Shown piece after piece: positions 19,418 through 56,337 of a DNA stretch of 64,000 nucleotides. The notes under the pieces were generated by a model. It worked only from the letters and a program-made list of their open reading frames with translations, ran no database searches and was not told where the DNA came from. Source of the DNA: Promethearchaeota archaeon. GTDB taxonomy: Archaea > Asgardarchaeota > Lokiarchaeia > Sigyniarchaeales > SOKP01. Numbering within the stretch: position 1 is the first letter of the stretch; each line of letters starts with the position of its first letter. The position numbers and the translations under genes are program-made. The stretch is from assembly GCA_019058445.1 (NCBI GenBank), contig JAHPZA010000009.1, forward strand, positions 722,355 to 786,354, written 5' to 3'.

Positions 19418-19936
19418 TTATTCGATATCTTTCGCATCATCTGGGATTGGATCATAGTATTCTATATCCATTAATCCACCAGTAGCATTCTCTTTCCAAT
19501 GTGCCTTAATTGGCATTCCGATATAAGTGTCTTTAACATTGATGCCTGGAGCTAATTCTGCTATAGAACATGTATCGGCACCATCATGTTGAACTAAAAT
19601 CATAGGTTTCTCTTCAACTTGTCCCGTATCTGGATTCTTAAGATAGGCAATCGCATAAGTAGCAACTCGGGCAGTATCTCTAATATCCACCCATCTATCT
19701 GGTTTCACTAGACATTGACCGCAAACTAGCCTGGGAGGAAAGAATACTCTATTGCATCCAGAACATTGATTTGCGATAAGTTTCTTCTCTTTTAATTTCT
19801 CTAACATTGGTTGATGATGTGTAATATTAAATCTAAATTTATAACTGGACAAATACCAACTTCCAGGCATTGTTCGAGTTCTTACATAATCCTTCTTAAT
19901 ATAGTCTAAAGATTTTCTTTGGGTTAATTTTGACAT
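19418..19936 (-). CDS. DUF35-type OB-fold / zinc-ribbon protein (acyl-CoA-associated)
   Basis: Zinc ribbon CSGCNRVFFPPRLVCGQC followed by an OB-fold-like segment. I prefer the start MSKL (ATG 19936) because GGAGGT lies 7 nt upstream; the track ORF starts at 19951. Confidence 0.75.
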   Translation of the reverse strand: MSKLTQRKSLDYIKKDYVRTRTMPGSWYLSSYKFRFNITHHQPMLEKLKEKKLIANQCSGCNRVFFPPRLVCGQCLVKPDRWVDIRDTARVATYAIAYLKNPDTGQVEEKPMILVQHDGADTCSIAELAPGINVKDTYIGMPIKAHWKENATGGLMDIEYYDPIPDDAKDIE

Positions 19937-19941
19937 TTTCT

Positions 19942-21189
19942 CTACCTCCATTTACGTTTTGGTTCATCTGACATAACCATAAGGGTACAAAGATTTAAAC
20001 TTCCACCCCAACCATGCCCTATGGATGTATGAACAGTTTTAGGTACCTGATTATCAGCTTTTCCCATTATTTGTAAGGCGGCAACCGCGGGTCTTTCCAT
20101 CGCAGAAGCACCAATAGCATTGGTAGAATTAACCCCACCCGAACAATTAACTGGTAGATCACCATCTAAAGCAGTTGTACCATTTTCATACATTTGTGGT
20201 GCTGTAGTTTCTTCGAATAATCCTAATTTCTCCAGCCACATAAGTTCTTGATTTGGGAACGGGGAGTATACCTCAGCATAGTCAATTTCTTTACGGGGGA
20301 ATGAAATTCCTGCTTGAGAATAGGCTAACTCAGAAGATCTCATAGCGCCTATTTGGGCTGAAGGGTCAGTTTGCGCTGAGCCGCTTCCATCATATCCAAG
20401 GACAGCAGATTCATTTGCAACACTTGCCACACCATTAACATAAACAGGGATATCACACATGTCTTTTGCTTTCTCTTCTGTCGTGAACAACATAGCACAA
20501 GCTCCATCCGATGCCGGACAAAGCATACCATAGCGCAAAGGATATTGCACATAGGGCGTGTCTAAAACCTCTTCAATTGTGAGATCAGGCATTCTTAAGT
20601 GAGCCCACCAATTCTTGGCAGCCATTCTTCTATTATGTACGACAACTCGAGCCAGATCCTCTTCAGTTATTCTTGCTTTACTCATATAATTTGTTGCTTG
20701 ATAAGCTGCTACTCCTATTGCTGCTCCGGCACTTAATATGCGTGAAAGGGAATCATAGTCTATTCCTAATGTATTAAGAATCGAAATTTCTCCATATGCA
20801 GTGCTAGCAAGCCCCACACTAGTATCTCCTTGAGATTGTTGCTCATACGCAATTGCTAAAACTGTATCGATGCCTGGTAACCCCGCTGTGACATTATAAT
20901 ATCCTGCGATAGCGACTGTACCACCCGTAGTTCCTCCAGTTGTTACGCGCAATAATGGTTTATTTCTTGCGCCCATCCAATCAGTACTCCACAATTCAGG
21001 CATATTAGCCCCCTCAAATGCAGGCATGTTTCCGGTTACAAACGCATCTATATCACTTATTCCTAAACTTGGAACTTTCTTCAAACAGTCCCTGATTGCC
21101 TCATTTACTAATTCCGGCATGTTTACATCAGATCTTTTTGAAGAATGCTCACAAAAACCAGCCGAAACTATAGCTACTTGTCTACCCAT
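19942..21189 (-). CDS. Thiolase-like (SCP-x/lipid-transfer type) protein lacking the nucleophile cysteine
   Basis: Thiolase-fold length and layout. The position equivalent to the N-x-x-C-x-S-G motif reads VTTGGTTGGTVA. I prefer the start MGRQVAIVSAGF (ATG 21187-21189), 1 nt after the upstream stop and preceded by GGAGGGAAGTGA. Confidence 0.75.
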   Translation of the reverse strand: MGRQVAIVSAGFCEHSSKRSDVNMPELVNEAIRDCLKKVPSLGISDIDAFVTGNMPAFEGANMPELWSTDWMGARNKPLLRVTTGGTTGGTVAIAGYYNVTAGLPGIDTVLAIAYEQQSQGDTSVGLASTAYGEISILNTLGIDYDSLSRILSAGAAIGVAAYQATNYMSKARITEEDLARVVVHNRRMAAKNWWAHLRMPDLTIEEVLDTPYVQYPLRYGMLCPASDGACAMLFTTEEKAKDMCDIPVYVNGVASVANESAVLGYDGSGSAQTDPSAQIGAMRSSELAYSQAGISFPRKEIDYAEVYSPFPNQELMWLEKLGLFEETTAPQMYENGTTALDGDLPVNCSGGVNSTNAIGASAMERPAVAALQIMGKADNQVPKTVHTSIGHGWGGSLNLCTLMVMSDEPKRKWR

Positions 21190-21190
21190 T

Positions 21191-22333
21191 TCAATCACTT
21201 CCCTCCAATGTAAATAATATATTATTCTGGGCACACATTCCTATTTGCCCCGAAGCAATTGCTTTTTTTGCTCCCTTAACTTGATACCCGTTCGCTTCAC
21301 CTCGAAGTTGTTTTGCCGCTTCAATAATTCTAATTAATCCCGTTGCACATGGGGGATTACCACCTATTGCCCCTCCAGACGGATTAATTGCTAAATCACC
21401 ATTAATTTCAGAATTCAGATTCGCAGCTTTTCCTTTGTCAGCTAATCCGAGTGCTTCCGCTAAAATTAATTCTTCATGAGCATAAGCTTCAAATAATTCC
21501 GCCACATCAATTTCGTTTTTTGGGTCTTTAATTCCCGCAGTAGTAAATGCTGTTTTTCCCGCAATTTCCATTGATTTACTTATTGATAAATCTCTCTCTC
21601 CAAGATAATATGCTTCCTGACTATATCCTACCCCTGTAATCCAAACAGGATTATCCGTTATTTTTAAAGCTTGTCTCTCAGGGGCCAATAAAATTGCAGC
21701 TATACTATCACAAGGTTGAGCAACCATTAACTCTGTTACAGGATCAGAATAAATTTCAGAATTTAATACATCTTCGACAGTTATATTAGCATTTTGAGCC
21801 TCTGCTAATGCTAAGGGATTTTTAGCCGCGTTTTTTCTATTTTTAACAGCTACCTTAGCAATCTCTTCTTTGCTTACTCCAAACTTCTCCATATATGCTC
21901 TCATTTGAAAACCTCCGGCAGTTATATCATTCACATATCCAAGCGGTCTTTCCCAAGTGGGATCCGTCTCATACAATCGAGTAGAATGATAAGGGTAGCA
22001 TGAAGGCATACTACCACTCCATATAACTGCTAATTTATGATTTCCGGATAAAATTCTCATTAATCCATAGAGAACTGCATGAGCTCCATCCATTTCACAC
22101 TTACTTTCATCTGCTAAATAACCGCCTCCTACCTCAACTGTGAATAAGTTACTTATGGTCCTGCCGTCATAGTAATCATTCGTACATGATATAACCGTAG
22201 TAATATCCTTTTTCTTTAAACCTGACTTATCAAGTGCGCCCCTTACAGCTTCAAAAATCATTTCATATCTGCCATAATTGGCATCTGAATACATTTTAAC
22301 TTGATTAAATCCAACAATTCCTACTTTTTCCAC
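21191..22333 (-). CDS. Thiolase-like protein (cysteine retained at nucleophile position)
   Basis: VGIVGF ... ESKCEMDGAHAV at the nucleophile position ... NPSGGAIGGNPPCATG. GTG start preceded by GAGGTGAT. Confidence 0.75.
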   Translation of the reverse strand: MEKVGIVGFNQVKMYSDANYGRYEMIFEAVRGALDKSGLKKKDITTVISCTNDYYDGRTISNLFTVEVGGGYLADESKCEMDGAHAVLYGLMRILSGNHKLAVIWSGSMPSCYPYHSTRLYETDPTWERPLGYVNDITAGGFQMRAYMEKFGVSKEEIAKVAVKNRKNAAKNPLALAEAQNANITVEDVLNSEIYSDPVTELMVAQPCDSIAAILLAPERQALKITDNPVWITGVGYSQEAYYLGERDLSISKSMEIAGKTAFTTAGIKDPKNEIDVAELFEAYAHEELILAEALGLADKGKAANLNSEINGDLAINPSGGAIGGNPPCATGLIRIIEAAKQLRGEANGYQVKGAKKAIASGQIGMCAQNNILFTLEGSD

Positions 22334-22344
22334 TTTTTATCACC

Positions 22345-22812
22345 TCATACCTTCACAAATCCATTTATATCAGATGGGGCTCCAGTAGTTTTTTCGCTCC
22401 AATCAACTTTAACCCTCATCCCAATCTTAATTTCATCAGGTGGCATATTCAAGAGTCTATTTACAATCGCTGTATTGCTACCATCAATTTGCACCATGGC
22501 TATAAGTTGAGGATCTTTAACCTTTCTAGTTCTTCTATCAGTAACTTTAAAATGTGTTATCGTAAAATTTTGCAATGTTCCAGAATCCGGTAAGTCTACC
22601 CAGTTTTGATCAAGCGATAGGTTTTCATTACATTTTCCACACACACTACGGGGTGGGCAAAACACATCACCGCATTTGGGGCATTTATTACCAACAATTT
22701 TCTTTTGTTCTAGACCATCGTAGAATTTATCCATGTATCTTCCAACCCAGAAATTAAATTCCGCACGAACTAAGCCCTTATTATTTACTATTACTTTTTC
22801 TTCTTCGGCCAT
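22345..22812 (-). CDS. DUF35-type OB-fold / zinc-ribbon protein
   Basis: Zinc ribbon CPKCGDVFCPPRSVCGKC plus an OB-fold-like C-terminus. First gene of the four-gene minus-strand operon. Confidence 0.75.
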   Translation of the reverse strand: MAEEEKVIVNNKGLVRAEFNFWVGRYMDKFYDGLEQKKIVGNKCPKCGDVFCPPRSVCGKCNENLSLDQNWVDLPDSGTLQNFTITHFKVTDRRTRKVKDPQLIAMVQIDGSNTAIVNRLLNMPPDEIKIGMRVKVDWSEKTTGAPSDINGFVKV

Positions 22813-28193: not shown

Positions 28194-28934
28194 ATGTTAA
28201 CTGAAGATCAAAGGAAAAGATACTCACGACAAATTATTTCACCATTAATTGGAGAGAAGGGACAAGAAATAATATCTTCTCTTAGGGTTCTACAAATTGG
28301 AGCTGGAGGGCTTGGATCCCCTTGTTCTTTATATCTTATTGCCTCAGGGATTAAAGAACTTACAATAATTGATGATGATATTGTATCCATCTCCAACCTT
28401 CAAAGACAAATACTCTATAACGAAACCCATGTGGGTAAAGTTAAGGTTGAGATGGCCAAACAAGTATTGTCTAATTTGAATTCCGAGGTTCAAATAAATG
28501 CCTATAAAGATTTTATCGACGAGAATTCAATAAAAAAATATTTAAAAAATCAAGATTTTATAATTGATTGCAGCGACAATATGAAAACTAAGTTCTTAGT
28601 AAATAAAGTTGCTGTGGAAAACAAAATTAAAGCTGTCATTGCTGGTATTAAGGATTTTTACGGCCAAATTATCACAGTTAATCCGCAAAAAAGTGCCTGT
28701 TATCAATGTATTTTTCCAGAGCCTGAGTCTGAGCCCTCAAAAACTGAGGGCCCTTTACCAGTTATAGGAGTTACACCCGGTATCTTAGGCACTTTAGAAG
28801 CTTTAGAAGTTATAAAAACTGCTTTAAATCTGCCCAATTTGGAGAATAATCTTTTAATGGTTAATCTTATAGATATGAGCTTTAGTAAGATAGAAGTTCT
28901 TAAAAACGAGAATTGTATATGCTCGGGAAAATAA
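28194..28934 (+). CDS. ThiF/MoeB/UbaA-type E1-like adenylyltransferase
   Basis: RYSRQI ... VLQIGAGGLGSP ... IIDDDIVSISNLQRQ ... CYQC ... CICSG. I prefer ATG 28194, 4 nt after the Roadblock stop; the track ORF starts at 28176. Confidence 0.8.
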   Translation: MLTEDQRKRYSRQIISPLIGEKGQEIISSLRVLQIGAGGLGSPCSLYLIASGIKELTIIDDDIVSISNLQRQILYNETHVGKVKVEMAKQVLSNLNSEVQINAYKDFIDENSIKKYLKNQDFIIDCSDNMKTKFLVNKVAVENKIKAVIAGIKDFYGQIITVNPQKSACYQCIFPEPESEPSKTEGPLPVIGVTPGILGTLEALEVIKTALNLPNLENNLLMVNLIDMSFSKIEVLKNENCICSGK

Positions 28935-28947
28935 AATAGAAAAAAAA

Positions 28948-29478
28948 TTAGATTTTAGTATATTCTGGATGTTTTTCAAAAAATTCTTTAAAAAATTGTC
29001 CGTTTTTTGCGTATTCCACCGTCCCTAAATTTCCCCTTCGAGGGATTTTTTTTTTAACTTCCGCAGGAATACCCACTACCATACTATTAGGTGGTATTTC
29101 TTTATTCACTAATACTGCTCCTGCGGCAAGCAGAGAACCCTCGCCTAATATAGAATTATGTAACACTTTAGCACCCATGCCCACCAAACACCCATCACCA
29201 ATAGTACATGGGCCATGAATAGTAGCAGAATGTCCAATTATACAATCTGAACCTATATCAACAATGGTTCTAACTGTTACGTGTACGACCACATTTTCTT
29301 GAATACTCGTATTTTTCCCTACCTTAATTGTGCCCCAATCACCACGCAACACTGCTCCGAACCATATATTTGCTCCCTCTTCAATTATAACATCTCCAAT
29401 GATAACCGCCGTGGGGGCAATGAACGCAGTTTCATCTATTTGGGGTTCTATATCTGTTCTTGGACTTGGTATTATCAA
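28948..29478 (-). CDS. Gamma-carbonic-anhydrase-family left-handed beta-helix (hexapeptide repeat) protein
   Basis: Hexapeptide repeats with LRGDWGTIKVGKNTSIQENVVVH and IGHSATIHGPCTIG. Confidence 0.8.
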   Translation of the reverse strand: MIIPSPRTDIEPQIDETAFIAPTAVIIGDVIIEEGANIWFGAVLRGDWGTIKVGKNTSIQENVVVHVTVRTIVDIGSDCIIGHSATIHGPCTIGDGCLVGMGAKVLHNSILGEGSLLAAGAVLVNKEIPPNSMVVGIPAEVKKKIPRRGNLGTVEYAKNGQFFKEFFEKHPEYTKI

Positions 29479-31567: not shown

Positions 31568-32860
31568 TTAATAAACTTTCTCTATAATATGTATACAGAG
31601 GGCAGCTTCTCCAGCACCTATATTTCCGCCTCCATTTTCAGCAAGAGCTATTTTAGGATTCTTAACTTGTCTTTTATCCGCTTCTCCTCGTAATTGTGTC
31701 ACTAATTCATACATCTGTGCAAGACCTGATGCTCCAATAGGGTGCCCACGAGCCAAAAGACCCCCACTAGGATTAATGGGGATCTTCCCAGTAAGTTCGG
31801 TAGCTCCACTTTCTACAAAAGGACCACCTTCCCCAACCGGACAGAATCCTACTTGTTCCATGATATGAAGTTCGCCAAATGCAGTTGCATCATGAACTTC
31901 TGCCACATTTATATCATCTGGTCCAAGACCGGACATCTCAAATGCTGCCTTAGCAGCTCGTTTACAAATAGTATTGCTTTTCCATGAACCAGATTTTAAA
32001 ATGGATGCACGTACTAAAATGGCTCTCTTTTTTAGATTAGGATGATCATCCAAAAACTTCTCAGAACAAAGAATAGATGCTGCGGAACCATCTCCAATAG
32101 GGGCACACATCGCTCTTGTTAATGGATAAGCTACAACGTAATCATTCATAACCTGTTCAACAGTTTGAGGAAATGTGTATTGAGCTAAAGGATTCATTGT
32201 GGAATTATTATGGTTTTTGGCAGCAATAACAGCTATCTGCCGCTGTGTAGTTCCATATTTTTTCATATGATTACGAGAGGCCATGGCATAAAAATCCATG
32301 AACATAGAGTGCTCTTTTTTTTTCTGCTCTTTATTATCGCCCTTTTCTTTAGCACCTTTCTTGTTTCCTTCTTGAATCTGTTTTTTTAGTTGTGCAATCA
32401 TCTTTCTTGTTCTTTCTACATCTGTCCCCGAGATAAAACCTGCCATACTTCCACCTCCACCACTGCGTTTTTTGCCGCTTTTAGAGGGTCTTTGATAATA
32501 CATCTTTTCGGTACCGATGGCTAGCGTACAATTGTACAATCCTGCTTTTATTGCTGTCCAGGCGCCTTGAAAAGCAGTACTCCCGCTCGCACAAGCATTT
32601 TCTACATTCGTAATTGGGATCTTATCTACTCCATTTGCACTAAGCGCCACTTGACCTCTTATACAATGTTGAAACTCAGCCATACCCCACCCTGAATTAC
32701 TGAACCAAGCAGCTTCAATATCTTTTTTTTTTAATTCAACGTCCTTGAGTGCCAATTCAAGGGATTCTCCAGTCATGCTCTTGATTGTTTTATCAAAATT
32801 TTTTCCAAATTTGATCATACCGACTCCGATTATATAAACATTATCACTCATAATTTTCAC
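31568..32860 (-). CDS. Thiolase (acetyl-CoA acetyltransferase / SCP-x type) with Lys/Gly-rich internal insertion
   Basis: VYIIGVGM, nucleophile motif VENACASGSTAF, NPSGGLLARGHPIGASG. The start may be the fourth codon (MSDNVY). Confidence 0.8.
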   Translation of the reverse strand: MKIMSDNVYIIGVGMIKFGKNFDKTIKSMTGESLELALKDVELKKKDIEAAWFSNSGWGMAEFQHCIRGQVALSANGVDKIPITNVENACASGSTAFQGAWTAIKAGLYNCTLAIGTEKMYYQRPSKSGKKRSGGGGSMAGFISGTDVERTRKMIAQLKKQIQEGNKKGAKEKGDNKEQKKKEHSMFMDFYAMASRNHMKKYGTTQRQIAVIAAKNHNNSTMNPLAQYTFPQTVEQVMNDYVVAYPLTRAMCAPIGDGSAASILCSEKFLDDHPNLKKRAILVRASILKSGSWKSNTICKRAAKAAFEMSGLGPDDINVAEVHDATAFGELHIMEQVGFCPVGEGGPFVESGATELTGKIPINPSGGLLARGHPIGASGLAQMYELVTQLRGEADKRQVKNPKIALAENGGGNIGAGEAALCIHIIEKVY

Positions 32861-34106: not shown

Positions 34107-35306
34107 TTATGTTCTAGATTCACTTTCTAAGATAGTCACAATGTTAAAACTTTCTCGAATTTTATTTCCATCCAATATATTTTGTTTAAGTCTTTTACCT
34201 TCTACAGATTTCAACAATTCTTTAGATTGAGAAATAAATTCTAAAAATTTCTTCCTATCAGTTTCTAATAATCCCATATCAATCGCATTTTTTATTATAA
34301 GGTTTAGAATTAATAATTCAAATTGTTTTTGAATGGCATCCCAAATTAACCCCATTTCTCTTAATTGAATTGAGATTTCTCTTGCCATTTTATCTAAATT
34401 AGATAATTCTGTATAATATCCGGACTCAAAATGGATAATTTCATCGATTAACCGGTCTTTTATCAGGCGCAATGTTGTAGTTCCTACTAAATCATCTTCA
34501 TGGAAAAAAAAGTCGTCATTCTCTCGCTTAATTAGATAAAATCCAAGTTCATGTGTAATTAATTTAAGGCGGGCTAAATAATTTATCGCTTCAGGTGCTA
34601 CATTATATATTTCACAAAACTGATCTAAGTTAAGTTTGTAACCAGAGAATTTTTGCATATCGCTAGTTTCATCCTCTTCATTCACACGCCAATATCTTCT
34701 TGCAAAGGCACCTTGACCTAGAATTGAGTTATAAAATACATAAAAAAGGGAAAGATAAAGATCTCGATCCTGTTGAATTTCGAAGAAATTATCCCCTATC
34801 TTAGAAACAATTTTAACAATATGAAATATAAATGAATCAACAACTCCAATTTCTTTATAAAAAGTAATTAAATTATCAAGTTTCTTGACGTTACGTTTGA
34901 GCTCATTTATCATAAATAGCTCTTCTTTTAATTTTAAAGGCTCTTCACCTAGTTTTTCGATCCCCTTTTCGGTAATAACGTATCCTTGATATTGTTTATT
35001 AGTTAATTTATCCGTAATGAGTCTCTGTTCAATATTGTTGTTTTCTCTATGCGAATTTAAATATTTTGAGACAGTTGATCTACTTAAATTTGAATATTTG
35101 ACTAAACTTGTAAATCTTTGCGGACCTAAATTTCTTAGAATAAATAGTAACCTCCTACTATTATCGTCAATGGAACGCGCCTTTCTTAGCATTTCACCCT
35201 TTAATTTCTTTGAAATATTCCAGCTTTCCATATCTATCATATAATATTCAAAATATTTAAAGTTGGACCAAATTTCCAAACTTGGACTAAATTTTTTGAA
35301 AAACAC
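34107..35306 (-). CDS. Hypothetical protein with N-terminal winged-helix-like segment
   Basis: A 399-aa ORF. RFTSLVKYSNLSRSTVSKYLNSH is HTH-like. Nothing else is recognisable. Confidence 0.45.
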   Translation of the reverse strand: MFFKKFSPSLEIWSNFKYFEYYMIDMESWNISKKLKGEMLRKARSIDDNSRRLLFILRNLGPQRFTSLVKYSNLSRSTVSKYLNSHRENNNIEQRLITDKLTNKQYQGYVITEKGIEKLGEEPLKLKEELFMINELKRNVKKLDNLITFYKEIGVVDSFIFHIVKIVSKIGDNFFEIQQDRDLYLSLFYVFYNSILGQGAFARRYWRVNEEDETSDMQKFSGYKLNLDQFCEIYNVAPEAINYLARLKLITHELGFYLIKRENDDFFFHEDDLVGTTTLRLIKDRLIDEIIHFESGYYTELSNLDKMAREISIQLREMGLIWDAIQKQFELLILNLIIKNAIDMGLLETDRKKFLEFISQSKELLKSVEGKRLKQNILDGNKIRESFNIVTILESESRT

Positions 35307-35440: not shown

Positions 35441-35629
35441 ATGTCAATAGAAAACCCGAATTTATTGGAAAGAATAAAAAAAATTGAACAAAGATTAGAT
35501 GCAATCGAGGATCGAATTTTATCATTAGAAACTTTTCTAAATCGCCGTCCATTAAGACCAGGACCTCCTATGCCTCCTGGACCGACACCTCCTGGGCCTC
35601 CAAAACCACCTGAACCATTTCGATTCTGA
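35441..35629 (+). CDS. Small coiled-coil plus proline-rich protein
   Basis: 62 aa. A heptad-like LLERIKKIEQRLDAIEDRILSLETFL is followed by RPLRPGPPMPPGPTPPGPPKPPEP. The GC-rich proline tract is unlikely to arise by chance in this AT-rich DNA. Confidence 0.45.
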   Translation: MSIENPNLLERIKKIEQRLDAIEDRILSLETFLNRRPLRPGPPMPPGPTPPGPPKPPEPFRF

Positions 35630-35815
35630 ATTTCTAATTAAAGCGATAGTACATGGAAAAATTTAATAATTGCTAGAGAATTAAACTAAAGTATATTTTT
35701 TTAGACAAAAATACTTAATTATCTCTTCATCTTATTTCAGACTAAAAACATTTTTTAGAAAAAAATAAAAAAGGTGTGATGCAAAATTACGCAATATAGA
35801 TTCAGGCTTACTGGT

Positions 35816-36040
35816 GTGCCCCCAGATCAAGCTATTAAGTTAATCGAAGTAGACCCTAACCAAGGGATTGCTGAAATTAAAAAGTCAGTACAAAGAGAAT
35901 ATAAATTAAATCCAATTTTAGCAATTCAATTTATCTTCAAGGGTAAAGTTTTACCTGATGATTTGAAGTTTTCTAAGATTGGTATACATCCAAAGAAGGA
36001 TGTTATAACAGTAATGGCTACTCAAGCTGGTGGCATCTAA
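35816..36040 (+). CDS. Ubiquitin-like beta-grasp protein ending GG-Ile; true 5' end probably upstream (see findings)
   Basis: IQFIFKGKVLPDDLKFSKIGIHPKKDVITVMATQAGGI lines up by eye with ubiquitin [34 protein letters not shown]. The coordinates are the minimal GTG-started ORF from the track. Confidence 0.65.
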   Translation: MPPDQAIKLIEVDPNQGIAEIKKSVQREYKLNPILAIQFIFKGKVLPDDLKFSKIGIHPKKDVITVMATQAGGI

Positions 36041-36132
36041 AAGATTAACTTTAATAATTATTTACTATTTTTTTATTTTTGTACTATTGTTAAGTACAAT
36101 AAAACTGTATATAATCACCTTGAGGAAGATAA

Positions 36133-44244: not shown

Positions 44245-45636
44245 ATGAAAATTGCCATATTAAATGGAAGTCCGAAAGGAGATCAAAGTGTTACAATGCA
44301 ATACATATTGTATGTAAAGAAGAAAATTCCGGAGCATGAGTATAACATTTTAAATGTAGCTCAACAAATAAAAAGGCTTGAAAAAAACGATGCCGCTTTT
44401 CAAGAAATTTTGGATGCGATCAGAGATTCAGATGCGGTTATTTGGGGTTTTCCTTTATATGTCATGGTTATTGCTTCCCAGTTTAAACGGTTTATTGAAC
44501 TTATTTTTGAGAAAAAGGCTACGAGCTATTTTAATGATAAATATACCATGTTGTTATTGACTTCAATTCACTTTTTTGACCATACCGCTGAAAATTATAT
44601 GCATGGAATTTGCGATGATCTGGGAATGAAATTTGTGGATTTTTATTCCGCAGATAGTTGGGATCTATTATATCCTAAAAGAAGAGCGATGTGGCTAAAA
44701 ATAGCTGAAAATTTCTTTGAAGCAGTCGAAAAGAAGATTCCAACTACGAGACAATTCCCTCCGATCCACTTAAGGGAATTTGAATATAATCCAGAAAAAT
44801 TCAAAAATGGAGAAAAAAAAGTAGATCCTGAAGATAAAAAAATTCTTATTATTACTGATTCTATAGATGATAATAAAAATCTGGGAAAAATGATCAAAAA
44901 GTTCCAATCTTGTTTTTCCAAGAACATAGAAATAATCAATATTCATGATGTAGATATTCTGGGAGGATGCATAGGCTGCGGTAAATGTGGATATAATCAT
45001 GAATGCTCATATACGGGAAAAGATGGATATCAAGAATTTTGGGAAGAAAGTGTAATGAAGGCTGACGTATTGATATTTGCAGGAACTATAAAGGATAGGT
45101 TCTTATCTTCAAGATGGAAAATGGTGTATGACAGAGCTTTTTATAACACCCACACTCCAACTTTAATTGGAAAACAGTTAGGGTATATAGTTTCCGGGCC
45201 TTTTAGTCAAATCCCTAATCTAAAAGAAATGATGCAAGCACATGTAGAAATCCAAATGTCAAATCTCGTAGGGTTTGTAACAGATGAGTATGGAGATTCC
45301 GCTGAAATAGATGCCCTACTATATGATCTTGCTCGACGATTAATTAAATTTGCGCAAATGAATCTCATAAAACCTCAGACTTTTCTTGGAGTGGGAGGTT
45401 TTAAAATATTTAGAGATGATGTATATGGACGTAATCGTTTCGTATTCTTAGCGGACCATAAATGGTATGAAGAACATGGGGTGTATGATTCCTTTCCTCA
45501 AAATGATCAGAGAGCGATTGAAATGAATAAGAAACTGATTCCTTTAATACAAATTGACAAAATTAGAAATAAAATGGACTTTAGAATAGAATTTTTAAAA
45601 CCTTTTAAGAAAGTAATCACTGATCCAAATAAATAA
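44245..45636 (+). CDS. Two-module flavoprotein: NAD(P)H-FMN-reductase-like module plus iron-sulfur-flavoprotein (Isf)-like module
   Basis: The N-terminus is MKIAILNGSPKG ... VIWGFPLY. The second module begins KILIITDS and carries the compact motif CIGCGKCGYNHEC (CX2CX2CX5C). Confidence 0.6.
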   Translation: MKIAILNGSPKGDQSVTMQYILYVKKKIPEHEYNILNVAQQIKRLEKNDAAFQEILDAIRDSDAVIWGFPLYVMVIASQFKRFIELIFEKKATSYFNDKYTMLLLTSIHFFDHTAENYMHGICDDLGMKFVDFYSADSWDLLYPKRRAMWLKIAENFFEAVEKKIPTTRQFPPIHLREFEYNPEKFKNGEKKVDPEDKKILIITDSIDDNKNLGKMIKKFQSCFSKNIEIINIHDVDILGGCIGCGKCGYNHECSYTGKDGYQEFWEESVMKADVLIFAGTIKDRFLSSRWKMVYDRAFYNTHTPTLIGKQLGYIVSGPFSQIPNLKEMMQAHVEIQMSNLVGFVTDEYGDSAEIDALLYDLARRLIKFAQMNLIKPQTFLGVGGFKIFRDDVYGRNRFVFLADHKWYEEHGVYDSFPQNDQRAIEMNKKLIPLIQIDKIRNKMDFRIEFLKPFKKVITDPNK

Positions 45637-45665
45637 AATTAAAAAAACCAAATTGAGATATAAAA

Positions 45666-47063
45666 ATGAAAATTGCTGTATTAAATGGAAGTCCTAAAGG
45701 TAACCTAAGCGTTACTATGCAATACATTCTCTATATTCAAAAAAAATTCCCCCAACATGAACTTAAAATCCTAAATGTTGCACAACAAATCAAAACACTT
45801 GAAAAAGATCAAGAAAAGTTTCAGGAGGTTATTGAAGTAATTAAGGCTTCTGAAGGGGTAATATGGGGTTTTCCTTTATATGTTACGTTAGTCTCATCTC
45901 AGTACAAACACTTCATTGAACTTATTAGTGAAAAAGGCGTAGAAGATGCCTTTAAAGATAAATATGCCGCTTTAGTATGCACGTCCATTCATTTCTATGA
46001 TCATACTGCTGTGAACTATATCAATGCAATCAGTGATGATTTAGAAATGAGATTTGTAGGATTCTATTCCGCAGAAATGATGGATTTAATGGAAGAGGAG
46101 CAAAGAGAAAACCTAGTTTCATTTGCTAAAGATTTTTTTTATACAATTGAAAACAAGTTATCAACAACAAGGAGATATCCCCCTCTAAAATTACGAGAGT
46201 ATAAATACACACCAAGTGGACTTATAAACGATAAAGAAAAAATTCATGCGAATGGGAAGAAAATTTCAATTATTACTGACTTGACAGATGAAGAATCTAA
46301 CTTAGCAAAAATGATTAAATCATTTCAGGATTGTTTTTCAAGTAATGTTGAAATAATTAATGTGAATGATGTAGATATTAAGGGAGGTTGTTTAGGATGT
46401 TGCCAGTGTGCGTATGATAACCAATGCATATATAGGGATAAAGATGGATTTACAGAATTCTATAATACAAAAGTTAAAACGCCGGATATAATTATCCGGG
46501 CTTTAACGATAAAAGACAGATATTTTTCTTCTAGATGGAAATTAGTGCTTGATAGGAGCTTTTTTAACGGTCATGTTCCGACGATAATCGGGAGACAAAT
46601 CGGCTATATTATTTCAGGTCCGCTGGGACAAATACCTAACCTGAGACAAATCATTTACGGGATGACTGAACTTGCAGATAACAATCTGGTTGACATTGTT
46701 ACGGATGAATATGGAGAATCACGGGACATTGATCAAATGCTTTATAATTTAGCAGAAAGGGTAGTAAGACTCTCAAATTCTAATTATATTAGTCCGGGGA
46801 CTTATCTTGCTGTAGGGGGGAGAAAAATATTCCGAGATGCCATTTATGGTAGAATGCGCTTTGTTTTTCAAGCTGATCATCGGTATTATGAAGAACATGG
46901 ATTATATGATTTCCCACAAGACGATGAACAAGCCAAGAAGATGAATGATATGTTTATCCCCTTGATTAATAAAGATGAGAAATTTAGAAAAATGTTTTAT
47001 TCGAGAACCACAACGGAAATGGTAAAACCATTGCAGGAGATAGTGAAAAATCCTAAAAAATAG
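45666..47063 (+). CDS. Two-module flavoprotein, tandem paralog of 44245-45636
   Basis: MKIAVLNGSPKG ... VIWGFPLY ... CLGCCQCAYDNQC. Collinear with the neighbour. Confidence 0.6.
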   Translation: MKIAVLNGSPKGNLSVTMQYILYIQKKFPQHELKILNVAQQIKTLEKDQEKFQEVIEVIKASEGVIWGFPLYVTLVSSQYKHFIELISEKGVEDAFKDKYAALVCTSIHFYDHTAVNYINAISDDLEMRFVGFYSAEMMDLMEEEQRENLVSFAKDFFYTIENKLSTTRRYPPLKLREYKYTPSGLINDKEKIHANGKKISIITDLTDEESNLAKMIKSFQDCFSSNVEIINVNDVDIKGGCLGCCQCAYDNQCIYRDKDGFTEFYNTKVKTPDIIIRALTIKDRYFSSRWKLVLDRSFFNGHVPTIIGRQIGYIISGPLGQIPNLRQIIYGMTELADNNLVDIVTDEYGESRDIDQMLYNLAERVVRLSNSNYISPGTYLAVGGRKIFRDAIYGRMRFVFQADHRYYEEHGLYDFPQDDEQAKKMNDMFIPLINKDEKFRKMFYSRTTTEMVKPLQEIVKNPKK

Positions 47064-53074: not shown

Positions 53075-53875
53075 TTAATCTTTCTCTATTAAATCTTTTA
53101 CTTTTTCAATGATTGGAGGCAGAACATCTATAATATCATCAAAGAATCTTAAATCTGCTACTCTATCATAGGGTGTTTCTCCTCTATTTAAAATTATGAG
53201 TTTAGAACCCGATTGTTTCGCAATCCCCGGCATATTAGCCGCAGGGGTTACGACTAGAGAAGATCCAATTACAAAAAACACATCTGAAGCTTCAGACCTC
53301 CTCATAGATTCATATAATTCATCTTCTGGCAGAGGATCTCCGAAATTTACTATACTATTAATTATCCTCCCCCCGCACTGCGGACATTTTGGCTGACCAT
53401 CCTTAATTCCATCTGTTCTATATCCTTTTCCCCATTTATTCTTATCCCATCCTGCCTCTTCGAAAAGCATTTTTTTATTACATTGTAGGCATTTCATGTA
53501 GTACATGTTTATGGCATATGATGAATACTATCATATGTTTCCATGAAGTTCTGCCAGCTTTTCAAAGGGGATCCCTGATTTCGCATGAAGCCCGTCAACA
53601 TTCTGAGAAATTAAGTAGTCTAATTTCCCAATTTTCAATAATTCTACAATAGAAAAGTGAGCGATATTTGGTTTTACTTGGTCCCATGGAGGGGATTTTG
53701 GAGGAGGTAGCCCTGCATCCCTACGAGTCCACACTCCATCCGGTCCACGATAATCTGGTAGACCACTATGAGTGGAAACTCCTGCTCCAGTAAAGACTAC
53801 GAGTTGTTCAGATTCAGCAATCCATTTTGCTGCTAAATCGATTTTTTCTTTAAGTTCTGGTTCCATAATACACAA
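53075..53875 (-). pseudogene. Sir2-family NAD-dependent deacylase split into two in-frame ORFs (53531-53875 and 53075-53506) by a short insertion carrying TGA TAG
   Basis: The two halves are collinear with the intact paralog at 54008-54787. The break falls right after the catalytic ELHGN motif, and both ORFs are in the same frame. Confidence 0.6.
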
Positions 53876-54007
53876 ATAAAATTACTATTTATAAAAAGAT
53901 ATTGTCCAAAATCTAAATTTAAAATACTGAAAATAAAAAGTCATATTTTTCAGATTAAAGGAAAATTGTTGTTTTAGTATCTCTTTAAATAATTATGATA
54001 TCATAAT

Positions 54008-54787
54008 TTAGCGTGCATGATCCACCCCTACCATTTCTTTAACTTTTTCTACAATAGGAGGTAATACATCAGCAATAGAATCAGAGAACCTCAAATCAGC
54101 TATATTGTCATATGGGGTTTCTCCTTGGTTGAGAATGATTAATTTCGCACCACTTTGTCGAGCAAGACTAGGCATATGTGCTGCAGGATATACTACTAAA
54201 GATGACCCTATAACGAAAAATACATCACTTTCTGCTGATCTTCTCATTGATTCTTGTAAATCATCTTGGGGTAATGGGTCTCCAAAATTAACAATACTAT
54301 TAATTAACCTTCCTTCACAATCCGGACATCTTGGGTGTCGTTTTCGTGGTTTTGACATTCGAAATCCCATTCCATGTAGTCGTCTATTCCATCCTGCTTC
54401 TTCAAATGTTAACTTTTTTCCACAACCTAAACATCTCATAAGTTGCATATTTCCGTGTAATTCTGCAAGTTTTTCAAAGGGGATACCAGATTTTATGTGA
54501 AGCCCATCTATATTTTGGGATATTAAATAATCTAGCTTTCCCATTTCTAATAACTCTACTATTAAATAATGAGCGATGTTAGGGTTAACTTTATCCCATG
54601 GAGGAGACTTAGGAGGGGGTAGACCAGCATCTCTCCGAGTCCACAGCCCATCTGGGCCACGAAAGTCAGGTAATCCGCTATCTGTGGATATACCCGCCCC
54701 GGTAAATATTACTAGTCGTTCAGATTCGGCAATCCATTTTGCGGCTAAATCTATTTTTTCTTTAAGATCTGATTCCATAGTACACAA
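54008..54787 (-). CDS. Sir2-family NAD-dependent protein deacylase (sirtuin) with Cys4 zinc module
   Basis: FTGAGISTDSGLPDFRGPDGLW, QNIDGLH, ELHGN, CLGCGKK ... CPDCEG, GSSLVVYPAA. Confidence 0.85.
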   Translation of the reverse strand: MCTMESDLKEKIDLAAKWIAESERLVIFTGAGISTDSGLPDFRGPDGLWTRRDAGLPPPKSPPWDKVNPNIAHYLIVELLEMGKLDYLISQNIDGLHIKSGIPFEKLAELHGNMQLMRCLGCGKKLTFEEAGWNRRLHGMGFRMSKPRKRHPRCPDCEGRLINSIVNFGDPLPQDDLQESMRRSAESDVFFVIGSSLVVYPAAHMPSLARQSGAKLIILNQGETPYDNIADLRFSDSIADVLPPIVEKVKEMVGVDHAR

Positions 54788-54921
54788 ATAAAATAACTAT
54801 TAATAAAAACATATTGTAATTAGTTAAAAAGAACCTAATTAAAAAGATATCCTACATTAAAATCAAAAAAATTAATTAATACTTGTATAACTATATAATA
54901 AAATCACGGAAGGAATTTAAA

Positions 54922-56337
54922 ATGGCGAAAAAGAAATCAAAAAAGAAAATTTCAAAGGATTACGATTTCAAATTATTACTACAGTCAATGACAGTTGCGA
55001 AAATTAAGGAACTAATTGATTATTACAATGAGAAATTTGTCATCAATGGACCGAAAGATGAATTGTTAAAGCGATTTTCTACCCTTAAGAAAGCAGAACT
55101 GGTGGAATTTGTTGATGCTGCTTTTACTAAGGCGGAGAAGGATGAATTGTATGATGAATTTGCCCCTGAAATTATACAGACTATAATGACTGATGCTCTT
55201 TCTCTAGTTAGTGGCGAACATAAAGTTGAACAAATTCATAATGCGTCAGTTATTTCTGGAGGAAAAGGCTATAGAGTATGGTTTAAAGGAAAATATGGCT
55301 CGAATCGCGCATCTTTGCAAATTCTGGATGATTCCACTAAAAAGAGTTGTACTTGTAGATTAGGAAGCATAGATGGGATCTGTATGCATCAAATGGCTAT
55401 TTATCTGATGCTTTTGAGTAAAAAAGCAATCTCTTTAGATAACATGCCTTTCAATGTTGATGAAAAATGGTTTAAGTCTATACAGAAAAGGTTAGATCTG
55501 CTAGCAGCTCAAAGTTTATTTAAAGAAGACCCGACTATTATGCTTTCGAATGATTACTCCATCTATGTAAGCGGAGACCTTGTTACATTGCAATGGGGAG
55601 GGGATTATGCGGGGCGAACTACCAAGGATATCTCAGAGGAAGGGGGGGATGTAGATGAATGGGTTGCTCAAAAAGTGGTGGATATACTCCTTAAACCTAT
55701 TAAAGTAAAAACAAAGGAGGGGGCGCCAAATAAATTAGTTATTGATTCTTATGGAATTATTTCAAAAATAATGGGGAATCCTAAGTTAAAAGAGAAAATT
55801 TTGAAAAAGTTTGCTAAACTTGAAGATCCAGACCTACCCTCTGATGAACAATCTCTTGAAGAGTTTCTAAGAAGTGATTTAAAAGAGCAGACCGCAGATT
55901 TAAAGATTGACCCCCCATTTGAAGCTTATATGGGAAACGAGCCATTTCTATTCATAAGTTATACACATAAGGATAAATCAGAAGTATACCCCATAATAGA
56001 AAAATTATATAACAACGGAATTAATATTTGGTATGATGAAGGAATCCCTTTGAGTACTGATTGGTGTAATACCCTCGCAGAAAAAATTTTGGATTGTCAA
56101 GTCTTTTTATCATTTATTTCTCCCCATGTAAATGAATCGGATAACACTCAAGACGAAATACAATTTGCAATAAACGAAAAAAAAACCTTTCTTGCGGTGT
56201 ATTTAACCGAAGGGGATCTTTCTCCTGGATTAAAAATGAGAATGAGGAGAATTCAGGGTATTGAAAAATTCCAAATGGACCAAGAGAGATTTTATGACAA
56301 GCTATTGAACGAAATTAATAGAATAGTAAGCAACTAA
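54922..56337 (+). CDS. SAP/HeH-like plus SWIM zinc finger plus C-terminal TIR-like domain protein
   Basis: SWIM is CTCRLGSIDGICMHQMAIY. The TIR-like C-terminus is PFLFISYTHKDKSEVYPIIEKLYNNGINIWYDEGIP ... DWC ... VFLSFISP ... SDNTQDEIQFAI. I prefer ATG 54922 (GGAAGGA upstream); the track ORF starts at 54883. Confidence 0.6.
   Translation: MAKKKSKKKISKDYDFKLLLQSMTVAKIKELIDYYNEKFVINGPKDELLKRFSTLKKAELVEFVDAAFTKAEKDELYDEFAPEIIQTIMTDALSLVSGEHKVEQIHNASVISGGKGYRVWFKGKYGSNRASLQILDDSTKKSCTCRLGSIDGICMHQMAIYLMLLSKKAISLDNMPFNVDEKWFKSIQKRLDLLAAQSLFKEDPTIMLSNDYSIYVSGDLVTLQWGGDYAGRTTKDISEEGGDVDEWVAQKVVDILLKPIKVKTKEGAPNKLVIDSYGIISKIMGNPKLKEKILKKFAKLEDPDLPSDEQSLEEFLRSDLKEQTADLKIDPPFEAYMGNEPFLFISYTHKDKSEVYPIIEKLYNNGINIWYDEGIPLSTDWCNTLAEKILDCQVFLSFISPHVNESDNTQDEIQFAINEKKTFLAVYLTEGDLSPGLKMRMRRIQGIEKFQMDQERFYDKLLNEINRIVSN

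Follow-up and report, generated by a model that had tools for sequence, protein, structure and literature searches.

An intact Lokiarchaeial ubiquitin gene whose translation most likely begins at a near-cognate AUU codon behind a strong Shine-Dalgarno sequence

We analysed a 64,000-nucleotide stretch of DNA from a Promethearchaeota archaeon of the class Lokiarchaeia (assembly GCA_019058445.1, contig JAHPZA010000009.1, positions 722,355 to 786,354; hereafter the window, in which all coordinates are given), and in particular a ubiquitin-family gene on its forward strand that has no ATG, GTG or TTG where its first codons lie. The comparative data presented here suggest that this locus is a functional ubiquitin-type modifier gene and that AUU at 35786, a near-cognate codon, is most likely its translation start. 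The gene is an intact, highly conserved Lokiarchaeial ubiquitin gene, ordinary for a Lokiarchaeon, and belongs to a known Asgard and archaeal family; what appears to be new is the conserved near-cognate initiation. Non-AUG initiation is apparently widespread across this ubiquitin family, is shared with a linked E1-like gene and is apparently undescribed: in the literature that we searched on start codons, no report tied an Asgard ubiquitin to a non-AUG start.

Inspection of the sequence showed that an uninterrupted frame runs from TGA 35777-35779 to TAA 36038-36040 and encodes the ubiquitin-family protein. Past the TGA, the frame translates as CKITQYRFRLTGVPPDQ...ATQAGGI (also written CKITQYRFRLTGVPPDQAIKLIEV...ATQAGGI). 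Its earliest ATG, GTG or TTG is GTG 35816, and strand beta-1 (TQYRFRL) is encoded 5' of that codon. Reading from ATT 35786-35788, the sole near-cognate codon after the in-frame TGA and ahead of codon 2, gives a coding sequence (CDS) of 84 codons plus TAA (35786-36040, +) with the predicted product (M)TQYRFRLTGVPPDQAIKLIEVDPNQGIAEIKKSVQREYKLNPILAIQFIFKGKVLPDDLKFSKIGIHPKKDVITVMATQAGG-I, in which codons 2-10 (TQYRFRLTG, 35789-35815), specifying beta-strand 1 and a turn, precede the first canonical start. A GGTG lies at 35773-35776 and a run of four A at 35783-35786, while ATG 35779-35781 belongs to the neighbouring frame, which closes after six codons (MQNYAI*). An earlier reading of this DNA from its letters alone (the sequence-only reading) had placed the first beta-strand upstream of any in-frame start codon, and each of the features on which it relied (TGA, frame, ATG, A4, ATT and GGTG) was confirmed. 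It had offered four explanations, namely a homopolymer indel, a frameshift (programmed, or in a pseudogene), initiation at ATT 35786 behind GGTG, and truncation of the product by initiation at GTG 35816. Of these, the third is backed by the start position of the orthologues and by the Shine-Dalgarno data below.

Orthologues were collected from 80 species-representative genomes, which gave 84 distinct CDS (the genome set), and from 80 metagenome contigs, which gave 64 further distinct CDS; the DNA of close relatives was also fetched. The start position was taken as the codon four positions before RFRLTG. Across the 148 distinct Lokiarchaeial CDS this codon is ATG in 81, ATT in 46, ACG in 11, TTG in 6, ATA in 3 and GTG in 1, and ATT 35786 occupies exactly the start codon position of the ATG-type orthologues. 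ATT, ATA and ACG, each one base off ATG, all fall at this same aligned codon, which is non-canonical in 60 of the 148 distinct orthologues (about 40%), a group drawn from many assemblers and samples. Among the 40 non-AUG CDS of the genome set, 34, like the window gene, are preceded by an in-frame stop, in most cases 2-3 codons before the start, and contain no ATG, GTG or TTG ahead of codon 11. In those 34 CDS, codons 2-10 (T-Q-Y-R-F-R-L-T-G) are invariant at the amino-acid level and use 2-5 synonymous codons per site, with five for Arg5 alone. This invariance despite synonymous change indicates that the segment is translated and under purifying selection. Furthermore, most orthologues start M-[T/V/A/P]-QYRFRLTGVPPDQ, so the stretch 5' of GTG 35816 corresponds to the true N-terminus of the family. 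A neighbour-joining tree of the 246-nt gene was poorly resolved, and the 17 ATG/ATT changes counted by Fitch parsimony were judged an overestimate owing to this poor resolution. A distant member with a long N-terminal extension in gene calls (L090) also fits a non-AUG start, reading GGGAGAGGA-ACA-ACG.

The sequence-only reading had proposed that one A too many in the A4 run hides a start at ATG 35779, and that its removal from 35783-35786 restores MQITQYRF..., a beginning like that of ubiquitin. The neighbouring-frame ATG-CAA and the A4 run are really present. The two closest relatives, L099 (91.6% nucleotide identity) and L101 (85.5%), argue against such a sequencing or assembly error. Both have in common GGTGTGAT-N5-ATT, the in-frame TGA and AAAATT. 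L099 reads AAAAAGGTGTGATTTAAA-ATT and L101 reads AAAAAGGTGTGATCTAAA-ATT, with the spacing of the window, but where the window has GTGATG they have GTGATT and GTGATC, respectively, and neither contains the out-of-frame ATG. Since the layout is kept and the ATG is not, the proposed repair is refuted. The MQI beginning was found in no orthologue, and the 60 orthologues without a canonical start here are themselves difficult to reconcile with error. Non-AUG sequences also recur across independent assemblies (three JGI samples for L002-L004, and five assemblies for L006-L009 with L047), and L063, a record of 2.27 Mb titled chromosome, has an ATT start. We consider a homopolymer error extremely unlikely; the likeness of MQI to the beginning of ubiquitin is fortuitous and arises from the Shine-Dalgarno sequence. 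An exact-pattern scan of metagenome contigs for the 5' region of the window, with the length of the A-run varied, gave no match.

Initiation at GTG 35816, giving the N-terminally truncated MPPDQAIK..., would use the first canonical start of the frame, the one that automatic gene callers choose. The gene call P0092 (loci L002-L004), for instance, starts VPPDQ, at the equivalent of this codon. The orthologues speak against it: of 34 comparable genes, only 4 use GTG for Val11 and the others GTT, GTC or GTA, and several ATT-type loci have no further canonical start until 40-76 codons downstream. Truncation would also delete beta-1 by removing codons 2-10, on which purifying selection is strict, and 35816 has no Shine-Dalgarno sequence before it. 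Taken together, these observations make the truncated product highly improbable. The 74-aa product from this GTG had no match in the public gene index. For the non-AUG orthologues, public gene calls disagree with one another: a number of them extend the protein upstream by 20-65 spurious residues, others truncate it at Val11, and others again read GTG-TGA as M-W; P0005 (L006-L009) and P0122 are further members of this inconsistent group.

The absence of a canonical start could also be read as loss of the start codon in a decaying ubiquitin pseudogene. Against this, each of the 148 distinct CDS is intact, with an 83-residue core free of indels; identities within the class are 71-95%, and the Shine-Dalgarno sequence is stronger, not weaker, in genes without ATG. 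The intactness of orthologues under purifying selection leaves a pseudogene with a next to negligible probability, and it likewise opposes the frameshift raised in the sequence-only reading.

We then considered how the ribosome could be directed to the ATT. A Shine-Dalgarno-like sequence, AGGTGTGAT, spans 35772-35780 (+); it includes the in-frame stop TGA 35777-35779, and its last base opens the out-of-frame ATG. Around the closing TGA, the orthologues conserve the motif (A/G)GG(G/A)TGTGA(T) or GAAGTGAT, which agrees with the archaeal Shine-Dalgarno consensus GGAGGUGAU; the leader of Pyrococcus abyssi aEF1A, GGAGGUGAUUUAAAUG, is a comparable example (PMC6237735). In the window, the GTGA core lies 6 nt 5' of ATT, and the duplex predicted with the assumed anti-Shine-Dalgarno sequence GGAUCACCUCCU has an energy of -10.5 kcal/mol, a value reached by 0.9% of random 22-nt windows. 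The most enriched 5-mers 5' of the window genes are AGTGA, GTGAT and TGATT, and further instances occur as GAGGUGAUAAAAA-GUG at 22333 (-) and AUAGGUGAUUUAG-UUG at 29478 (-). The enrichment of the same motif before the window genes indicates that the organism uses this Shine-Dalgarno sequence.

The strength of this sequence was found to follow the type of start codon. A GTG[AG] core located 5-7 nt before the start is present in 39 of 40 non-AUG orthologues as compared to 15 of 42 with ATG. In the genome set, predicted pairing averages -9.4 kcal/mol in non-AUG and -4.4 kcal/mol in ATG genes (Mann-Whitney p=1e-11), and the independent metagenome set agrees (-9.6 versus -4.8 kcal/mol, p=9e-7). As in-window controls we had an operon of thiolase-like genes and their ChsH2-type OB/zinc-ribbon partners (19418-22812 and 31568-32860, both on the minus strand), whose internal genes carry clear GGUGAU Shine-Dalgarno sequences.

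The same motif bears on two further explanations. In the first, a short open reading frame (ORF) starting from the ATG or GTG within GTGTGAT(G) would be joined to the ubiquitin frame on the A-run, by a programmed +1 frameshift or by transcriptional slippage. In many ATT-type loci an A-rich stretch does follow a GTG that lies in another frame, for example GTG ATT AAA AAT TAC. The frame of this GTG relative to the ORF varies, however (0 in 4 loci, +1 in 30 and +2 in 5), the A-runs are merely 3-7 nt long and variable in sequence, and the same GTGA motif stands at the same distance before ordinary ATG starts (L019, L024, L026 and L029). In addition, the motif matches the ribosome-binding site of other genes, and the out-of-frame ATG of the window does not occur in the closest relatives. 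In the second, GTG 35774 would be the start, with TGA 35777 recoded or read through, or else GUG-UGA would form a start-stop mini-ORF followed by reinitiation at AUU. An in-frame (A/G)TG-TGA is indeed found in the window and in many ATT-type loci, and some gene callers rendered GTG-TGA as M-W (P0001; P0003, L005 335-601, begins likewise). At least eight species, though, have the tandem stops TGA-TAA or TGA-TGA, and in others AAG, ACG, AGT or AGG precedes the TGA, leaving no start codon there. The motif is equally present before ATG-type genes, and the Rfam scan of the window revealed neither a SECIS-like nor any other element. The variable frame of the GTG, together with the tandem stops and the missing starts before TGA, argues against frameshifting, TGA recoding and an obligatory mini-ORF, and we regard both explanations as very unlikely.

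The protein itself was assigned by profile, sequence and structure comparison. It matches PF00240, the Pfam ubiquitin family, with 38.7 bits (curated cut-off 25.4; E 8.7e-10), whereas ThiS, MoaD and Urm1 gave no match in Pfam (E<=1) or NCBIfam (E<=0.01). The solved structures that match it best in sequence are those of polyubiquitin and of the UBL domains in Mdy2/Get5 and Rad23. When 5.8 billion proteins were searched, 192 homologues were retrieved at E<=1e-3, almost all with 83-88 aa and 71-95% identity; their sources name them Lokiarchaeota or Promethearchaeota proteins, and several are called 'ubiquitin-like protein' at NCBI. An AlphaFold2 (AF2) model built from an alignment of 38 family members predicts a ubiquitin-type beta-grasp (pLDDT 91.3) with strands at residues 2-8 (beta-1), 17-22 (beta-2), 46-51 and 73-79 and helices at 13-16 and 28-38. 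The short helix 13-16 corresponds to a five-residue insertion, VPPDQ, after beta-1. Residues 1-10 are modelled with a pLDDT of 94, and a complete beta-grasp requires, in the model, that translation start no later than codon 2, as it would from ATT. The top Foldseek matches in the PDB are ubiquitin (TM 0.76-0.84), SUMO, NEDD8, ISG15 and the Caldiarchaeum ubiquitin, with no ThiS or MoaD among the best 50 structural matches listed. Identity to human ubiquitin is 26%. L8-T9-G10 aligns with the LTG of ubiquitin, in keeping with the earlier suggestion that the upstream stretch mirrors ubiquitin beta-1, and I50 and K54 align with I44 and K48 and are invariant in the family alignment. The protein therefore belongs to the ubiquitin family and is not a ThiS/MoaD-type sulfur carrier, as the sequence-only reading had favoured from the residue pattern.

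That reading had also taken the residue after the Gly-Gly as a sign of C-terminal processing. In the window, GGT GGC ATC (36029-36037, +) encodes the Gly-Gly motif and a one-residue Ile tail. The position of the Gly-Gly is fixed in 84 of 84 CDS of the genome set, and what follows it differs: nothing in 18, Ile in 27, Phe in 11, Val in 8, and other short tails, including L, N, A, Y, K, YC and FLI, in the rest. A variable, non-conserved tail behind a fixed Gly-Gly points to a precursor that is trimmed to expose this motif, which in the window would require removal of the C-terminal Ile.

Another gene with the same start-codon behaviour lies 7.6 kb 5' of the ubiquitin gene. It encodes an E1-like adenylyltransferase of the ThiF/MoeB/UbaA type (28194-28934, +; 246 aa), comes right after a Roadblock gene and starts with ATG in the window. 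The protein matches PF00899 (ThiF) with 231 bits, contains the Gly-rich nucleotide loop motif VLQIGAGGLGSP, and has ThiF, MoeB and Uba4 as its closest solved structures; it stays below all NCBIfam equivalog cut-offs for MoeB, ThiF and UbaA (UbaA 194 bits versus 450). A Shine-Dalgarno-anchored scan of all loci for near-cognate starts recovered this E1-like family. In 39 loci the gene lies on the same strand as the ubiquitin gene and upstream of it within the 10-kb flank, and the codon at its start position is ATT in 19, ATG in about 11, ATC in 3 and ATA in 2 (ATT, ATC or ATA in 24 of 39). L064, L068, L071, L074, L076, L077, L079, L080, L081, L088, L034, L050 and L060 are among the loci with the E1-like gene. 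Its non-AUG copies stand behind AGGTGAT, with a predicted pairing of -9.0 kcal/mol as compared to -5.5 kcal/mol for ATG copies (p=4e-4). In the loci from the scan, in-frame stops precede the start by 0-6 codons, and no canonical start follows for 17-91 codons, in most copies not until past the nucleotide-binding loop. From its conserved linkage in the 39 loci, the E1-like protein probably activates the ubiquitin. Pfam identified no E2, RING or JAMM gene among window ORFs of at least 120 aa.

ATT starts behind strong Shine-Dalgarno sequences may occur in further genes of these genomes. One such case, which appears genuine, is a membrane-protein gene (about 455 aa) that reads AGGTGA-N6-ATT in L069 (-) at about 12415 and has ATG in its orthologues in L084 and L087. 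L078 (-), at about 2755, is listed with these three loci for the same gene. In a census for more ATT starts, no clear excess over other AT-rich triplets was detected once the ubiquitin and E1 genes had been removed.

The above findings can be assembled into a model of expression. A leadered mRNA would be made from a promoter-like box lying about 70 nt before the start, and the extended Shine-Dalgarno sequence AGGUGUGAU would pair with the 3' end of the 16S rRNA, setting AUU, six nucleotides past the GUGA core, in the P site. The initiator tRNA would then decode AUU as Met. In this scheme the strong Shine-Dalgarno sequence would make up for the weak start codon and result in throttled expression, possibly sensitive to the fidelity factor aIF1; archaeal aIF1 is reported to discriminate against non-AUG codons (PMC6237735). 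The product, (M)TQYRF...ATQAGG-I, would be a complete beta-grasp precursor from which Ile is trimmed after the Gly-Gly, and the resulting form would be activated by an E1-like enzyme, probably that of the ThiF-type gene, before any conjugation.

Several points weigh against initiation at AUU. Its use as a start codon is unusual, and the case made for it here is a comparative one. In a review, the archaeal start codons are listed as AUG, GUG and UUG only, and Shine-Dalgarno sequences are described as not prevalent in Prometheoarchaeum, the one cultured relative analysed (PMC7531240). The anti-Shine-Dalgarno sequence used in our calculations was assumed from the conserved 3' end of archaeal 16S rRNA; neither the window nor the fetched loci contain a 16S gene or its 3' end, and an Rfam scan of the window gave no match at all. 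The statistics on Shine-Dalgarno strength ignore shared ancestry, and the ATT-type genes fall in a few clades. Finally, codon 2 is here ACG, itself near-cognate, and a start one codon later is possible.

Conserved near-cognate initiation is hardly documented in archaea. In ribosome profiling of Haloferax, near-cognate sites were seen and set aside (PMC7261190), and a survey of prokaryotes recorded one AUG to AUU switch among 61,358 ancestral AUG starts (PMC5622118). The coupling of near-cognate starts with Shine-Dalgarno strength leads us to the hypothesis of translational control of the archaeal ubiquitin pathway. As a broader and tentative extension, which we consider possible and on balance doubtful, near-cognate starts (AUU, AUC, AUA and ACG) combined with strong Shine-Dalgarno sequences could be a conserved regulatory device of Lokiarchaeia, a group of archaea closely related to eukaryotes, acting on ubiquitin, the E1-like gene and scattered others. 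If so, the amount of the conjugation machinery would be set at start-codon selection and could respond to aIF1 or to stress, in a manner likened to bacterial infC or to eIF1-dependent near-cognate initiation in eukaryotes; standard gene callers would truncate, over-extend or miss such genes, and surveys of Asgard ubiquitin could be distorted.

In bacteria, infC, which encodes IF3, starts with AUU, and its translation thereby becomes sensitive to IF3, a factor that selects against non-canonical starts. The Lokiarchaeial gene resembles infC in its conserved AUU start and ribosome-binding site, and in that a weak codon could tie expression to initiation fidelity. It differs in belonging to another domain of life, in which aIF1 and aIF2 and not IF3 are at work, and in encoding no translation factor, with no feedback loop evident.

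Asgard ubiquitin systems serve to reconstruct the origin of eukaryotic protein tagging. With eukaryotic ubiquitin and its relatives in PF00240, the window protein has in common the beta-grasp, the LTG turn, the I44 and K48 equivalents, the Gly-Gly and a precursor form with extra C-terminal residue(s). It departs from them in its low identity to the human protein, its VPPDQ insertion and its AUU in place of an AUG start; moreover, the gene is single-copy and stand-alone, not a polyubiquitin or a ribosomal fusion, and has no E2 or RING gene nearby. Caldiarchaeum subterraneum, whose operon comprises Ub, E1, E2, RING and Rpn11, offers another archaeal ubiquitin-fold modifier (6fnn_C and 6fno_D, TM 0.75-0.77), the precursor of which is reported to be processed by a JAMM/Rpn11 homologue (PMC6043591). 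In contrast, the window genes are not gathered in one operon, the ThiF-type E1-like gene being only loosely linked, JAMM, E2 and RING are missing among the ORFs considered above, and the start codon is non-canonical. The SAMP/UbaA system of Haloferax and the ThiS/MoaD carriers share a Gly-Gly terminus and a small ThiF/MoeB-type E1, whereas the modifier described here scores as ubiquitin family and has ubiquitin, SUMO and NEDD8 as structural neighbours.

The Asgard ubiquitin of the Ub-ESCRT system (PMC9192718) is alike in organism group and protein type. The same paper states, on the basis of gene calls, that Thorarchaeota seem to lack ubiquitin homologues. Three of the records fetched here that are labelled Candidatus Thorarchaeota (L054, L072 and L076) contain the ubiquitin gene studied here, which begins with ATT in two of them. 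About 40% of the sampled Lokiarchaeial ubiquitin genes and many of the linked E1-like copies have no canonical start, evidently using AUU, ACG or AUA, and public records truncate them at Val11, extend them spuriously or read TGA as Trp. Because of such faulty records, presence/absence surveys and expressed constructs can be wrong.

Upstream of the ubiquitin gene, a conserved box, aaactaaagt-N-...aaaatacttaattat, covers 35683-35722 (+), about 64-103 nt before the start. Its consensus is AAACTnAAGT-N(12-16)-...AAAAT(A/C)CTTAAT(T/G)A, located at the same distance in ATG and non-AUG loci. The box is probably a transcription-factor site with BRE/TATA elements, and its position suggests a leader of about 40 nt that would hold the Shine-Dalgarno sequence. 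We had also considered a leaderless mRNA, an idea prompted by a TATA-like TTATAA about 30 nt before ATT in one clade; it was dropped, as the promoter-like box about 70 nt upstream is kept in both types of loci and Shine-Dalgarno strength tracks the start codon. Downstream of the gene, an oligo-T run, TTTTTTTATTTTT (36068-36080, +), is a putative transcription terminator, by analogy with known oligo-T termination in archaea.

Several neighbours of the gene recur in the fetched loci. A 62-aa ORF (35441-35629, +) encoding a coiled coil and a PGPP-/proline-rich tail that ends in EPFRF has tblastn matches in 53 loci, in most of which it lies about 150-400 nt 5' of the ubiquitin gene; it had no significant family match in Pfam or NCBIfam. 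The divergently oriented gene at 34107-35306 (-) encodes a 399-aa winged-helix protein with weak matches to HTH_45, HTH_5 and MarR and has tblastn matches in 81 loci; it is a candidate regulator that could act via the upstream box. The NadA neighbour has tblastn matches in 65 of the fetched loci.

The window as a whole has about 30% G+C and also contains genes for Lsm, Roadblock, a tRNA-splicing endonuclease, a SepSecS/SepCysS-like enzyme and SepF, a gene content that fits a Lokiarchaeial or Promethearchaeotal host. The region 53075-56337 may be a defence-type cluster, with a SIR2-family gene (54008-54787, -), a SIR2 C-terminal fragment (53075-53506, -) and a TIR_2 gene (54883-56337, +). At 44245-47063 (+) stand two tandem paralogues of about 464 aa, each with an N-terminal FMN_red/Flavodoxin_2 domain followed by about 300 unassigned residues, and a gene resembling them was found near the ubiquitin gene in L006.

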